From sequence record MT446415.1: DNA of 64,000 bases, one strand, 5' to 3'. Positions 35,562-41,610 of this stretch are shown one piece after another. Source of the stretch: Escherichia virus TH44. Each line of letters begins with the position of its first letter. Positions within the stretch are counted from its first letter, which is position 1. The position numbers and the translations under genes are program-made. Under the pieces are notes generated by a model. The model saw nothing but the letters and a program-made list of their open reading frames with translations, was not told the origin of the DNA and made no database searches.

Positions 35562-36740
35562 ATGAGTACAGTTTTTAATACCACTCCGGTGGATGTTTTA
35601 GCCGAGCCGATGTTTTTTGGTTCAGGATTGGGCATCGCACGTTATGATATCCAGCGTCATAAAGTTTTCGAAGAATTAACAGAAAAGCAATTATCATTCT
35701 TCTGGCGACCAGAGGAAGTCAACCTGATGATGGATGGGGCCCAATTTAATAAGCTTCCTGAACATCAACAAAATATTTTTACCAACAACCTGAAATACCA
35801 ATCACTCCTGGACAGTATCCAGGGTCGTGCTCCAGCTGCAGCATTAGCCGCATTAGTTTCTGACCCAAGTCTTGATACATGGATTCAGACCTGGACATTC
35901 AGCGAGACAATTCACTCTCGTTCTTATACGCACATCATGCGAAATCTCTATACGGACCCGGCGAAGGTATTCGACGAAATCCTGTTGGATGATGCAATCA
36001 TGAAGCGAGCTGAATCCATCGGTCATTACTATGATGATGTTCTGAATAAAACTCGTCAATGGCAAAACCAGATTGCTTTTGTTGAACTGGCCAAAGAAAC
36101 TCCCGAAGCAGACGAACGTTTGGAACGAGCTATCAAACAAGAAGCTATCGCCAAACGAGCATTGATGAAGTCTCTTTATCTCTGCCTGCATGTTATCAAC
36201 GCCCTGGAAGCTATTCGTTTTTATGTATCTTTTGCATGTACTTTCAACTTCCATAAGAATATGGAAATCATGGAAGGCAATGCGAAGATAATGAAGTTCA
36301 TCGCCCGTGATGAACAACTTCACCTTAAGGGGACCCAATATATTCTTCGTCAGTTGCAGACTGGTACCGACGGTGACGAATGGGTTAAAATTGCTCAAGA
36401 ATGTGAAGCAGAAGCTGCAGCCATTTTCATGGAAGTTAATCGCCAGGAAAAAGAATGGGCCGTGCATCTGTTTAAAGACGGTGGACTCCCTGGGTTGAGC
36501 GTCGAGATTCTTAACCGCTTCATCGATTACCTGACAGTTTCTCGTATGAAGCAATGCGGTCTCCCCTGTGAAATCGTGTTAGAATCTACTAAGCACCCGA
36601 TTCCATGGATTCGTGAATATCTCAACTCTGATAATGTGCAATCTGCCCCACAAGAAGTTGAGTTGTCTGCTTACCTGGTAGCCCAGATTGACAATGACGT
36701 CGATGAGAATGTTCTTGCTGGTTTCCGTAAATATCTATAA
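35562..36740 (+). CDS. nrdB: ribonucleotide reductase small subunit, uninterrupted
   Basis: 392 aa contiguous; diiron/tyrosyl-radical protein length; no intron. Confidence 0.95.
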   Translation: MSTVFNTTPVDVLAEPMFFGSGLGIARYDIQRHKVFEELTEKQLSFFWRPEEVNLMMDGAQFNKLPEHQQNIFTNNLKYQSLLDSIQGRAPAAALAALVSDPSLDTWIQTWTFSETIHSRSYTHIMRNLYTDPAKVFDEILLDDAIMKRAESIGHYYDDVLNKTRQWQNQIAFVELAKETPEADERLERAIKQEAIAKRALMKSLYLCLHVINALEAIRFYVSFACTFNFHKNMEIMEGNAKIMKFIARDEQLHLKGTQYILRQLQTGTDGDEWVKIAQECEAEAAAIFMEVNRQEKEWAVHLFKDGGLPGLSVEILNRFIDYLTVSRMKQCGLPCEIVLESTKHPIPWIREYLNSDNVQSAPQEVELSAYLVAQIDNDVDENVLAGFRKYL

Positions 36741-36743
36741 GGA

Positions 36744-36763
36744 AAGGGCTTCGGCCCTTTTTG
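36744..36763 (+). terminator. hairpin aagggcttcggccctt + T-run
   Basis: GC hairpin then ttttt directly before denA ATG. Confidence 0.5.
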
Positions 36764-36766
36764 CCC

Positions 36767-37177
36767 ATGAAACAAATCGCTGATGAATACAGTTTTATAA
36801 AATACGCGGAGTTGGAGTTAGTCGATGGTAAAATCCCTATCCTTACTCTCGCAAACAAGAAAAATGTTATCTATGCTATTTCAGTTGATGATGAACTAGT
36901 GTATATTGGTAAGACGAACAACCTTAAGAAGCGTATCAACTATTACCGGACTGCAATTAACCGAATCGAACAGACGAGTGATTCAAACAAATCCCGGATG
37001 ATACATGAAGCTTTACAAGAAGGCAAAAAGGTGGTATTCTATGCACGGCAATGTTTCAATCTGTCAATGACCAATGAACTTGGCACAATGTCAGTCGAAA
37101 CGATGTCTCTGGAAGAGCCGATGTTCATCAAGCTTTTTAATCCCCCGTGGAATTACCAACATAAGGTGAAGAAATGA
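36767..37177 (+). CDS. denA: endonuclease II (GIY-YIG family)
   Basis: strong similarity to T4 EndoII (EYSFIKY.ELEL, NVIYAI..DDELVYIGKT.NL.KRINYYRTAINR, FYARQCFNLSMTNELGTM). Confidence 0.85.
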   Translation: MKQIADEYSFIKYAELELVDGKIPILTLANKKNVIYAISVDDELVYIGKTNNLKKRINYYRTAINRIEQTSDSNKSRMIHEALQEGKKVVFYARQCFNLSMTNELGTMSVETMSLEEPMFIKLFNPPWNYQHKVKK

Positions 37178-38310
37178 TTGAATTATATGATAACTTAATG
37201 AAGCTTTGCGCCGAATCCGATAAAGGTAAGTTTTTCTATACGGATTTTGTTTCTCCATTTGAAACTAAGTTCCGCATCTTTAGCTATAACTATGCTTCCT
37301 ATAGTGATTGGCTTCTTGATGATGCGCTGGAGTGTCGTGGTATTATGTTTGAAATGGATGCTAATGGCCCAGTTCGCATTGCCGCCCGTCCTATGGAAAA
37401 ATTCTTTAATCTGGGTGAGAATCCAATGACCATGGACCTTAACCTTGATGAGGTTGTCCTGGTTACTGCAAAAGCTGATGGTAGTTTGGTTTCTACTTAT
37501 ATGGACCAGACTAATATCGCCTTTAAATCCAAAGGGTCAATCAAAAGCTCCCAGGCTGCTGAATCCTTGCAGGTGTTTAAACAAGAGCATCGCAGTGCAT
37601 TCAGGGCTCGCGTAACTGAAATCACTGAAGCTGGTTATACATGCAATATGGAATATGTTGCACCAACCAACCGCATTGTTTTGCCTTACCAGGAACGTGA
37701 CCTGATTTTACTGAACGTTCGTCATAATGAAACGGGCGAATATATTCCTTATCAGGAACTGTTCAAAGATGCTGCACTCCGTCCTTTCCTGGTTGAAGCA
37801 TATGACCCGGCGAGCATTGAGAATGTTCGTGGTATGAAAGAGATTGAAGGCTTCGTCTACGAGTTGGCAAGTGGTCAGAAGTTCAAGATGAAAACAGAAT
37901 GGTATTGTGCTCTGCATCATACTAAAGACTCCATTAATAATAATGAGCGACTGTTTGAAGTTGTTGTTGCTGGCGGGGCAGATGATGTTATTGCCATGTT
38001 TACTGGCGATAATTATGCTCGCGAAAAAGTTAATGCCTTTACTGTAACGCATCTGGATTATCTGTCCAATACGCTGGGATTGTTGCTTGATGCTCAGAAA
38101 CAATTGGCAGGAAAAGACCGTCGCGAGTTTGCGATTAAAGGTCAAGAGTTGTGCAAACCATACCCGGGATTGTTCTCCGTATTAATGAACACCTATCAAC
38201 GCCCACAGGAAACTGAACAAACGATTGCTCAAATCAATAAAGTTTTCCTTAAAAATCATAAACTTTACATTCCGTCGGACTACCAAGCGGAAGTAATCCT
38301 TCCTGAATAA
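37174..38310 (+). CDS. rnlA: RNA ligase 1 (tail fiber attachment catalyst)
   Basis: 378 aa; similarity to T4 gp63 (FRIFSYNYASYSDWLL.DALECRGIMFEMD, KEDGSLVSTY). Confidence 0.9.
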   Translation: MIELYDNLMKLCAESDKGKFFYTDFVSPFETKFRIFSYNYASYSDWLLDDALECRGIMFEMDANGPVRIAARPMEKFFNLGENPMTMDLNLDEVVLVTAKADGSLVSTYMDQTNIAFKSKGSIKSSQAAESLQVFKQEHRSAFRARVTEITEAGYTCNMEYVAPTNRIVLPYQERDLILLNVRHNETGEYIPYQELFKDAALRPFLVEAYDPASIENVRGMKEIEGFVYELASGQKFKMKTEWYCALHHTKDSINNNERLFEVVVAGGADDVIAMFTGDNYAREKVNAFTVTHLDYLSNTLGLLLDAQKQLAGKDRREFAIKGQELCKPYPGLFSVLMNTYQRPQETEQTIAQINKVFLKNHKLYIPSDYQAEVILPE

Positions 38311-38315
38311 TAAAA

Positions 38316-38381
38316 AAGGGGTGTACAAGCCCCTTCTTTCTATACATAATGGTTCCATCAACTACTGATGAGGACCAAAAC
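38316..38381 (+). promoter_or_regulatory. terminator-promoter composite (PeSL-like, type B)
   Basis: hairpin aagggg-tgtacaag-cccctt holds the -35 in its loop; CATAAT 38345-38350; ggttccatcaactactgatgagg. Confidence 0.5.
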
Positions 38382-38615
38382 ATGTTAAACTTAATTACAA
38401 ATGACAGAGTTACACAGGCATATGGTGACAGAAATGATGGAATCTATGTCTACAAGGGAGACCACCGGATTGGTTTCATTACTGACCTGAAGGCCAAATT
38501 GTTAAAAGAACTGAAAGCTCAAACAGGTGATTCTGGGTTTAGAGCAAGAGCCAAAAAGAAAGATGAGCGCCTAGGTGCCAACTCTTTTGGTCCCCGGGGT
38601 TACAACCGCTACTAA
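38382..38615 (+). CDS. Alc N-terminal-domain paralog (77 aa)
   Basis: NLITNDRVTQAYGDRNDGIYVYKGDHRIGFITDLKAKL aligns with Alc residues 3-40. Confidence 0.5.
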   Translation: MLNLITNDRVTQAYGDRNDGIYVYKGDHRIGFITDLKAKLLKELKAQTGDSGFRARAKKKDERLGANSFGPRGYNRY

Positions 38616-38628
38616 TGAGGAAAATATT

Positions 38629-39132
38629 ATGGATATGCAACTGATTTCAAATGAAATGATTGTCAATGAATATGGTGACCGTCATGACGGAATTTATGTC
38701 TATAAAGGGACCAAGAAAATTGGTCTCATGACTGACCTGCGGAAAAAACTCGCCTCCAATAAAAAGTTGAAAGCGAAACAAAAAGAATATCGTGATAAAA
38801 AATCAGAAGAGCGGAAAGAAGCACTGCATGAATCTGTTCCTGAAATGGTTGACTTCTTAAAGAACCATTTGGTTAAATATGATGCAGAAGTGTTCATCAA
38901 TCAGACCCAACCTAATGTGCATATCAATGGATGTGTTTGTTATGTTGTGGTTGAACCCCTGACACTTCAACACCGCCTGGGAATTAAACACCCAGTGTTA
39001 ACCCAGGATGATATGGCGGATGAAGTTGGTAATCAGTTCCGCATTTCAGCATCTGACAGTACAAATCACATCCTCCTGAATGGTTTATCCCAGGATGATA
39101 TTGTTGAGGTAATCATCAAGTTATGCAAATAA
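38629..39132 (+). CDS. alc: Alc (transcription terminator on unmodified C-DNA / host nucleoid unfolding)
   Basis: 167 aa from MDMQLISNEM, same length as T4 Alc; synteny rnlA-alc-spanins-pseT. Confidence 0.8.
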   Translation: MDMQLISNEMIVNEYGDRHDGIYVYKGTKKIGLMTDLRKKLASNKKLKAKQKEYRDKKSEERKEALHESVPEMVDFLKNHLVKYDAEVFINQTQPNVHINGCVCYVVVEPLTLQHRLGIKHPVLTQDDMADEVGNQFRISASDSTNHILLNGLSQDDIVEVIIKLCK

Positions 39133-39476
39133 GTAATCTCACCGCAGGGCTTATGCTCGCCCTGGTAGTAACTGCTGGTAGTGGTTTCTATCTAAAAGCA
39201 AAAGTGGATAATCTCAAGACAGCGGTGGCGGAAGTCACCAAAGTCGCAGAAGATAATGCGAAAAATCTGCAATCAGTAAAAGACCAGGTTAATCAAATTA
39301 ATCTCCTTGACCAACAGCGCCAGGAATATGTTGAACACCTGCAGAAGGAAAATGATAAACTTCGTGCAGATGCAAAACGTACTAAGGTTGTGGCAGCGAA
39401 GCCTAAATTAGTTGAAAAACAGATTAATCAGTCTTTTGATAAGTTCGCCCAGGACTTCCAGGAGCTCACCAAATGA
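39123..39476 (+). CDS. i-spanin (inner membrane spanin subunit)
   Basis: N-terminal TM then coiled-coil; precedes a lipoprotein ORF with 4-nt overlap. Confidence 0.7.
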   Translation: MQISNLTAGLMLALVVTAGSGFYLKAKVDNLKTAVAEVTKVAEDNAKNLQSVKDQVNQINLLDQQRQEYVEHLQKENDKLRADAKRTKVVAAKPKLVEKQINQSFDKFAQDFQELTK

Positions 39477-39763
39477 TGAAATCTATCATGGCAGTATGTT
39501 TGGCTATTGGACTCGTTTCATGCGCCCAGAAGCCCGTTGTGGAGCCCACAATCCAAGTTCATCCTAATTGGCCTGTTGCATTGGCTGATTACAAACAGCA
39601 ATGGGAAGTGAAGGTAATTGAGGGCCAAGCCTGGGTTGGCATGCCTTTTGAAGCATCGCAAGAATTCAGGATTTGGATGAATGATGTAAAAAGGTATGTA
39701 CATGACCAAAAAGGTATGTTATGTTATTATCGTTCTGAACTAAAAGAGGAACGTTGCAAATGA
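39473..39763 (+). CDS. o-spanin (outer membrane lipoprotein spanin subunit)
   Basis: signal peptide with lipobox LVSC; several Cys. Confidence 0.7.
   Translation: MMKSIMAVCLAIGLVSCAQKPVVEPTIQVHPNWPVALADYKQQWEVKVIEGQAWVGMPFEASQEFRIWMNDVKRYVHDQKGMLCYYRSELKEERCK

Positions 39764-40391: not shown

Positions 40392-41609
<1,218 letters not shown>

Positions 41610-41610
<1 letters not shown>

Follow-up and report, generated by a model that had tools for sequence, protein, structure and literature searches.

The short open reading frame (ORF) that precedes alc in Escherichia virus TH44 is, judged from its pattern of substitutions, a real gene kept by selection. We call it alcB, after 'alcb' in phage SP18. 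It very probably originated in an old partial tandem duplication of alc, the short copy of which turned into a stand-alone gene for the N-terminal module (N-module) of Alc. As an explanation of the whole we favor, with moderate confidence, a maintained early gene whose N-module protein may tune or complement the shut-off exerted by Alc.

The window, a 64,000-nucleotide stretch of sequence record MT446415.1, comes from a T4-like phage of the genus Gaprivervirus (Straboviridae, Tevenvirinae). Its rnlA-pseT.3 stretch (37174-39476) is 98.6% identical to those of Escherichia phages TH41 and UPEC01, and 90-98% identical to those of SP18, VR7, VR20, VR25, and VR26, all of which belong to Gaprivervirus. 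The features of the region are listed in Table 1. An 88-aa version of AlcB, starting at the in-frame ATG at 38349, was rejected: this ATG falls partly within the -10 hexamer of the promoter-like site, no ribosome-binding site precedes it, and all annotated relatives start at the 77-aa form. An Rfam scan of positions 38000-39400 gave a sub-threshold chance match only.

Table 1 Coordinates of genes, signals, and alcB segments in the window
Feature	Position	Strand	Description
nrdB	35562-36740		Local gene order
denA	36761-37177		Local gene order
rnlA	37174-38310		Local gene order
Terminator-like hairpin	38316-38335	+	Just 3' of the rnlA stop; 7-bp stem with 4 GC pairs, weak T tail
Sigma-70-type promoter-like site, TGTACA-17-CATAAT	38322-38350	+	9/12 match, alone not above chance
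5' leader of alcB (left end, duplication copy 1)	38351-38381	+	24/34 identical to 38598-38631
alcB (short ORF)	38382-38615	+	77 aa plus stop; Pfam and BLASTP matches to Alc, full-length match to phrog_17715, purifying selection
Head, codons 1-40 (Alc N-module)	38382-38501	+	z=23.8; all invariant residues; AlphaFold2 pLDDT ~90 for residues 11-40
Tail, codons 41-77	38502-38612	+	Basic (net +6); no significant Alc similarity; predicted disordered after ~residue 53
C-terminal 12-mer ANSFGPRGYNRY	38577-38612	+	Consensus [AR]N[ST]FGPxxxN[KR][FY]-COOH in four lineages
Left end, duplication copy 2	38598-38628	+	Encodes GYNRY and stop TAA (38613-38615); carries the alc GAGGA (38617-38621)
alc	38629-39132	+	167 aa; PF17527 full length, 166 bits
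pseT.3	39123-39476		Local gene order
pseT.2	39473-39763		Local gene order
pseT	40705-41610		Local gene order

The coordinates and translations of both ORFs in the initial annotation are exact, and its central observation, homology of the short ORF with the N-terminal ~40 residues of the alc product next to it, is borne out alike by BLASTP, Pfam, and shuffled controls. BLASTP aligns the 77-aa product with the 167-aa Alc at 31 identical residues out of 64 (E=2e-16), and the two copies are ~48% identical in protein. The Pfam family PF17527 (ALC) matches the short ORF over profile positions 3-62 of 177 with 38.5 bits (E=1.2e-9; gathering cut-off 25 bits), and the Alc family phrog_1253 matches it at E=4.8e-12. 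In Smith-Waterman alignments with Alc, residues 1-40 score far above chance (z=23.8; the real score was reached by 0 of 2000 shuffles). The demonstrable homology is confined to the first ~40-45 residues, because residues 41-77 alone score at the level of 2000 shuffles (z~1, not significant). The alignment program MAFFT set the tail residues 'RLG...' under the invariant 'HRLGI' of Alc, which we rejected as an artefact of gap placement, since the tail scores against Alc are at shuffle level.

All invariant residues of the Alc N-module (I6, G16, D20, G21, I22, G32, D36, and L37) are present in AlcB as I5, G15, D19, G20, I21, G31, D35, and L36. In the Alc-family alignment, G15, D19, G20, I21, and G31 are invariant and I5, D35, and L36 nearly so (AlcB numbering). 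The full-length architecture of Alc, in which a helix extends to residue ~80 and is followed by a C-terminal α/β domain (~87-166), is absent from the 77-aa AlcB. Each copy has its own Shine-Dalgarno sequence, as had been noticed initially: GAGGA is located 7 nt before both ATGs (38370-38374 and 38617-38621). Phage T4 indeed has a single alc after rnlA, separated from it by a gap of 64 bp.

The gene itself was already on record. In the GenBank entry of phage SP18 (GQ981382), the short ORF is named 'alcb, inhibitor of host transcription, similar to N-terminal region of bacteriophage JS98 Alc' (protein ADO19581), and the long gene 'alca'. The VR7 counterpart is gp243, or VR7ORF243c (ADR32618), labelled 'similar to bacteriophage T4 Alc'. 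In RefSeq and several other records, both genes carry the product name 'inhibitor of host transcription'. The short ORF also has a PHROG family of its own, phrog_17715 ('inhibitor of host transcription', 77 positions), which it matches over positions 1-77 of 77 at E=5.1e-53. SP18 alcb, VR7 gp243, and phrog_17715 represent the same gene as the short ORF of TH44, with proteins 95-98% identical, and these names stem from annotation transfer only. No discussion of the short paralog was found in the literature library searched. Judged by the initial annotation's own yardstick, the ORF is not new, being a conserved gene with separate names (alcb, VR7ORF243c, and phrog_17715); its suggestion of a recent duplication in decay is not supported either. 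Its reading of the ORF as a separate tandem homologue of the Alc N-terminus, with its own ribosome-binding site and absent from T4, stands. The role of modulator, decoy, or dominant-negative partner that it put forward would be a reasonable hypothesis, and agrees with a protein that keeps the N-module and has lost the C-terminal domain. The sequence observation is already known from GenBank and PHROGs, and what is added here over the catalogue entries is evidence on selection, age, the conserved tail motif, and expression context.

A blastn search with the 318-bp rnlA-alc interval matched 33 phage records, each at least 94.7% identical, and nothing outside these close relatives. The matched records that were retrieved all belong to Gaprivervirus, and the 33 include each of its six named species. 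The gene order rnlA-alcB-alc is common to SP18, VR7, and 14 other genomes. In other genera (Tequatrovirus, Mosigvirus, Dhakavirus, Karamvirus, and others), tblastn gave one Alc match only and no second copy. Several records deviate in annotation or content. In UPEC01 (L011), DCP80 (L012), P8 (L014), and protein P0003, alc is called from an upstream in-frame GTG or TTG; the resulting 189-aa product, the gene of which overlaps the last ~50 nt of alcB, probably has an over-extended start. In phage 212 (L008, PQ765507), product names are shifted by one gene, and 'RNA ligase' is placed on alcB. In the 141-kb DCP80 record (PQ671644), pseT.2 is missing entirely and pseT.3 for the most part on the downstream side of alc, and the record represents either a deletion variant or an incomplete genome.

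Selection within the genus was analyzed using alcB from TH44 and 15 relatives (n=16). All 16 copies have 77 codons, no frameshift, and a stop, either TAA or TGA, at the same place. The Nei-Gojobori dN/dS of alcB is 0.13, and its neighbors have values of 0.10 (alc), 0.09 (pseT.3), 0.105 (pseT.2), and 0.07 (rnlA). The variants in the annotated frame comprise 16 synonymous and 8 non-synonymous changes (binomial p=4e-6 versus neutrality), as opposed to synonymous to non-synonymous counts of 3:21 and 4:21 in the other two frames of the same DNA. The marks of a pseudogene, namely frameshifts or internal stops, dN/dS near 1, and lack of a frame-specific synonymous excess, were not observed in the 16 genomes. 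The strongest constraint within the genus is on the tail (codons 41-77), which has 13 synonymous and 3 non-synonymous changes (p=2e-6) and a dN/dS of 0.047. The head (codons 1-40) has 3 synonymous and 5 non-synonymous changes, which are too few for interpretation and indistinguishable from neutrality; the difference between head and tail has a Fisher p of 0.058. The constraint on the head therefore rests on the comparison across lineages.

The adjacent alc is itself divided in its variation. Within Gaprivervirus (TH44, L001, and L003-L016), alc codons 1-60 form two allele types, with a dS of 0.42 and nearly all of the amino-acid changes, and codons 61-167 of the same genomes are almost invariant (dS 0.07). 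This split implies that a recombination edge runs through alc at about codon 57-60 and that the N-module is the part of Alc that evolves fast. Inspected by eye, the alcB alleles of the 16 genomes showed no co-variation with either type of Alc N-terminal allele.

Relatives of the gene pair occur in metagenomes. A search with Alc identified two closer metagenomic Alc proteins, P0006 (75% identity) and P0005 (77%), and their contigs, L017, L018, and L022, have the rnlA-alcB-alc layout, with short ORFs of 77 or 78 aa that match Pfam ALC. A profile search with the short family added a further lineage, protein P0036 on contig L025, where the gene before the ORF is cut and the sequence stops at the alc start codon. 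The four contigs derive from uncultured T4-like lineages; L017 is ENA ERZ27239205 k119_62969. We thus compare four lineages, Gaprivervirus and three metagenomic ones, two of which show the full rnlA-alcB-alc layout. Their short proteins are 47-65% identical overall and keep the length of 77 or 78 aa. M1, N3-L4-I5, Y14-G15, D19, I21, K25-G26, R29, G31-F32, and D35-L36 are kept in all four, which also have in common a tail net charge of +5 or +6 and the C-terminal block [AR]N[ST]FGPxxxN[KR][FY].

Several comparisons bear on the age of the pair. Alc of L017 is 75% identical to that of TH44, versus 56% for T4 Alc, in a genome that is otherwise distant: its rnlA is 53% identical to that of TH44, versus 52% for T4, and its pseT, pseT.2, and pseT.3 are farther from TH44 than those of T4 (41-55% versus 48-78%; pseT 55%, pseT.3 41%). 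The alcB-alc pair therefore either predates deep splits or travels as a cassette. The short ORF is absent from T4 and from contigs L019-L021, which encode Alc proteins 63% identical to that of TH44, and the rnlA-alc spacer in these is ~62-64 bp. Neighbor-joining on the N-terminal 48 residues places the short proteins in a group separate from the Alc proteins, with bootstrap support below 50%.

A HMMER search of 1.84 billion representatives returned nothing beyond the short family, Alc proteins, and repeat-rich surface proteins of Bacteroidetes type. The scores of the latter are sums over multiple stretches, and we consider these matches repeat artefacts. Among them, P0027, P0029, and P0031 are repeat proteins of 645-1387 aa that match the 77-aa query in 6-11 stretches, with E-values between 1e-6 and 1e-9; in P0029 and P0031, the repeats include DNTDGTYTYTSEDG, which has a loose likeness to the Alc hairpin GDRNDGIYVYKGD. 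Two further metagenome-derived sequences are disrupted, and neither forms a family. In P0002, a Gaprivervirus alcB from one contig, the tail has suffered an internal deletion and a frameshift. P0030 is a T4-type Alc truncated by a frameshift after ~48 residues, reminiscent of laboratory alc mutants.

The AlphaFold2 model of Alc, calculated from a 22-sequence alignment, has a pLDDT of 92. It is composed of a helix (residues 8-15), a β-hairpin (23-33), a 47-residue helix (34-80) that is basic and highly charged, and an α/β domain (87-166). The model of AlcB, built on a mixed alignment, contains a helix (residues 7-14), a hairpin (22-32, pLDDT ~90), a helix extending to residue 53, and a disordered tail (pLDDT ~50). 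A sequence search of solved structures with Alc gave no match. The fold search with the AlcB model likewise gave none (best E=4), and no homologue or fold match of the tail was detectable. The best fold match of the Alc C-terminal domain was the C-terminal domain of MotA.

Alc acts through the elongating RNA polymerase of E. coli, and terminates transcription on DNA containing dC but not on modified DNA (PMC2988021, PMC2939025). The paf mutations affect R368 and P345/P372 of the β subunit, which lie at the opening of the main channel; Alc docked at this site would be able to read the DNA downstream or the non-template DNA (PMC2939025, PMC2988021). In the mechanism that we propose, AlcB would be an Alc N-module, comprising the short helix, the β-hairpin, and the start of the long helix, fused to a basic and largely disordered tail. 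The Alc C-terminal domain, with its predicted resemblance to the MotA DNA-binding domain, is the likely reader of cytosine versus modified cytosine, and it is missing from AlcB. Because every invariant residue of the N-module is kept, AlcB should bind the partner of the N-module; that the two proteins share a partner is a proposition we hold to be evenly balanced. The likeliest partner would be the β subunit of the host RNA polymerase near the paf positions (R368, P372), and the N-module could instead mediate self-association of Alc or another contact. Without the DNA-reading domain, AlcB would tune or complement Alc-dependent shut-off rather than terminate transcription itself, and the conserved basic tail with its C-terminal motif would add a contact of its own. 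That AlcB modulates Alc is a tentative part of this proposal. A selected paralog consisting of the N-module alone would mark the module as an independently useful unit, and would offer an experimental handle on binding to RNA polymerase and the paf site and on competition with Alc.

The alternative that survives best, though we consider it rather unlikely, is that AlcB works independently of Alc: the N-module would serve only to dock AlcB onto RNA polymerase or a different host protein, and the tail and its motif would carry a new activity directed at nucleic acid or a second host factor. This would agree with the tail being the most constrained part of the protein within the genus (dN/dS 0.047; 13:3), with the retention of the C-terminal 12-mer and the +5/+6 charge in four lineages, and with the lack of observed co-variation with Alc alleles. 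However, the tail has no detectable homologue or fold match, and alcB is located directly upstream of alc wherever downstream sequence exists, with its stop at the alc ribosome-binding site. This placement points to a functional pair.

Such a pair might also act through direct contact, AlcB binding Alc via the N-module and helix as a dominant-negative or hetero-oligomeric partner that alters the activity or timing of Alc. The N-module and the first part of the long helix are common to AlcB and Alc, and the two genes are probably co-transcribed and translationally coupled, which would fix the stoichiometry. Nothing indicates that Alc oligomerizes, though; its helix 34-80 is highly charged and not coiled-coil-like, and no allele co-variation was seen, which makes this arrangement unlikely.

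The tuning of Alc that we favor might also be related to the chemistry of phage DNA. Two comparative studies report that dCMP hydroxymethylase is absent from Gaprivervirus, in which alc, denA, denB, and the dCTPase gene are retained, and propose an unknown base (PMC8056088, PMC12115623). Comparison of the uvsX-imm region of VR7 (L024, 19000-34000) with that of T4 (L023, 22000-31000) detected neither gene 42 nor the β-glucosyltransferase gene (beta-gt) in VR7, at the position that both occupy in T4. We speculate, at long odds, that AlcB is a governor of Alc, an antagonist or timing device that evolved in T4-like lineages that lost gene 42, and that it occupies the Alc docking site on RNA polymerase and thereby protects the transcription of a phage genome that differs from T4 in its cytosine chemistry. 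The link between alcB and the missing gene 42 is speculation based on a single clade; the metagenomic contigs are too short to bear on it. If true, this would make AlcB a naturally evolved 'anti-terminator of a phage terminator', useful as a tool for telling the polymerase-binding half of Alc from the DNA-reading half. Gaprivervirus is the one genus of Tevenvirinae coliphages reported to lack the hydroxymethylcytosine pathway and yet carry anti-cytosine weapons, which makes the alcB-alc pair a reasonable place to study how such phages spare their own transcription.

The DNA around both start codons points to how the pair arose. Similarity of the two copies begins at GGTT (38351 and 38598) and continues, at an offset of 247 bp, through the leader and the ribosome-binding site into the coding sequence. 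The left edge of the duplication lies directly after the -10 hexamer of the promoter-like element, which aligns with the GTTTACA...TATAGT block before T4 alc and is a positional homologue of a T4-type early-promoter-like element. T4 and L019 have the block GT[T/G]TACA...TAnnaT before alc; TH44, VR7, L017, and L022 have it before the short ORF. Because it precedes alc where there is no duplication and the short ORF where there is one, the promoter appears to have remained unduplicated, with the short copy proximal to it. The -35 hexamer of the promoter-like site is placed in the loop of the terminator-like hairpin, so that terminator and promoter signals overlap (38316-38350).

The former alc leader now supplies the last five codons and the stop of alcB. 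This stop either directly adjoins the alc ribosome-binding site or is inside it (TGAGGA) in every lineage, 10-13 nt from the alc ATG. The right breakpoint, sought by comparing the 3' end of the short ORF with alc codons ~60-77 and the leader, is marginal for TH44 (3 of 300 shuffles) and not significant for VR7, L017, and L022; a hand alignment of TCT-TTT-GGT-CCT (SFGP) with alc TCT-GTT-CCT (SVP) is suggestive only. The likely origin is a single old tandem duplication of ~247 bp that comprised the alc leader, the ribosome-binding site, and roughly the first 70 codons. It would have left the short copy beside the early promoter, with alc 10-13 nt behind.

It is improbable that the short copy is instead a 5' alc fragment acquired horizontally, through recombination at the rnlA-alc junction with a different T4-like phage. 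The region is mosaic, with the recombination edge inside alc and the L017 cassette in a distant genome, and AlcB is about equally far from its own Alc and from those of other genera (45-59% over the N-terminal 48 aa). Such equal distances are also predicted by an old duplication, however, and the likeness of the leaders and ribosome-binding sites (24/34) together with the strict tandem register fits a local event. The close junction of the two genes, with the stop at the alc ribosome-binding site and the 10-13-nt spacer in every lineage, could further suggest a cis-acting leader ORF, the translation of which alone sets alc expression by coupling while the peptide is functionless. We regard this as very improbable, since the synonymous excess in this frame only shows selection on the amino-acid sequence, and the length, the invariant residues, and the tail motif are kept at 47-65% identity across lineages. 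The decay of a recent duplicate, suggested in the initial annotation, and a chance ORF can be dismissed: despite the near-neutral head counts within the genus (3 synonymous, 5 non-synonymous) and the frameshifted P0002 in one contig, the ORF is intact everywhere else, including 16 of 16 Gaprivervirus genomes, has a dN/dS of 0.13 and homology far above chance, differs from alc at about half of its aligned residues (~48% identity), and occurs in three deeply diverged metagenomic lineages that attest to its old origin.

An old, maintained duplicate of the N-module can be compared with several known systems. T4 Alc (PF17527, phrog_1253), which site-specifically terminates host RNA polymerase on cytosine-containing DNA, resembles AlcB in the N-terminal ~40 residues, and the two genes share the rnlA-pseT.3 locus and the early-promoter-like element. 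With 77 aa rather than ~167, AlcB has neither the C-terminal α/β domain nor the distal half of the long helix. Unlike T4 Alc, it ends in a basic, disordered tail bearing a conserved C-terminal motif of its own. The C-terminal 'double-wing' domain of T4 MotA (PDB 1kaf, 5jlt) may resemble the Alc C-terminal domain, in fold only, at ~10-14% identity and with weak scores, and this domain is absent from AlcB.

A further comparison is with truncated-paralog regulators. MicroProteins and dominant-negative short paralogs are regulators of this kind. AlcB likewise keeps the putative interaction module and lacks the putative effector domain, and its gene adjoins the full-length gene and is probably co-expressed with it. 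The decoy architecture fits, given the interaction and effector roles that we infer for the Alc modules. In contrast to such regulators, AlcB carries an extra conserved tail, a hint at something beyond simple competition.
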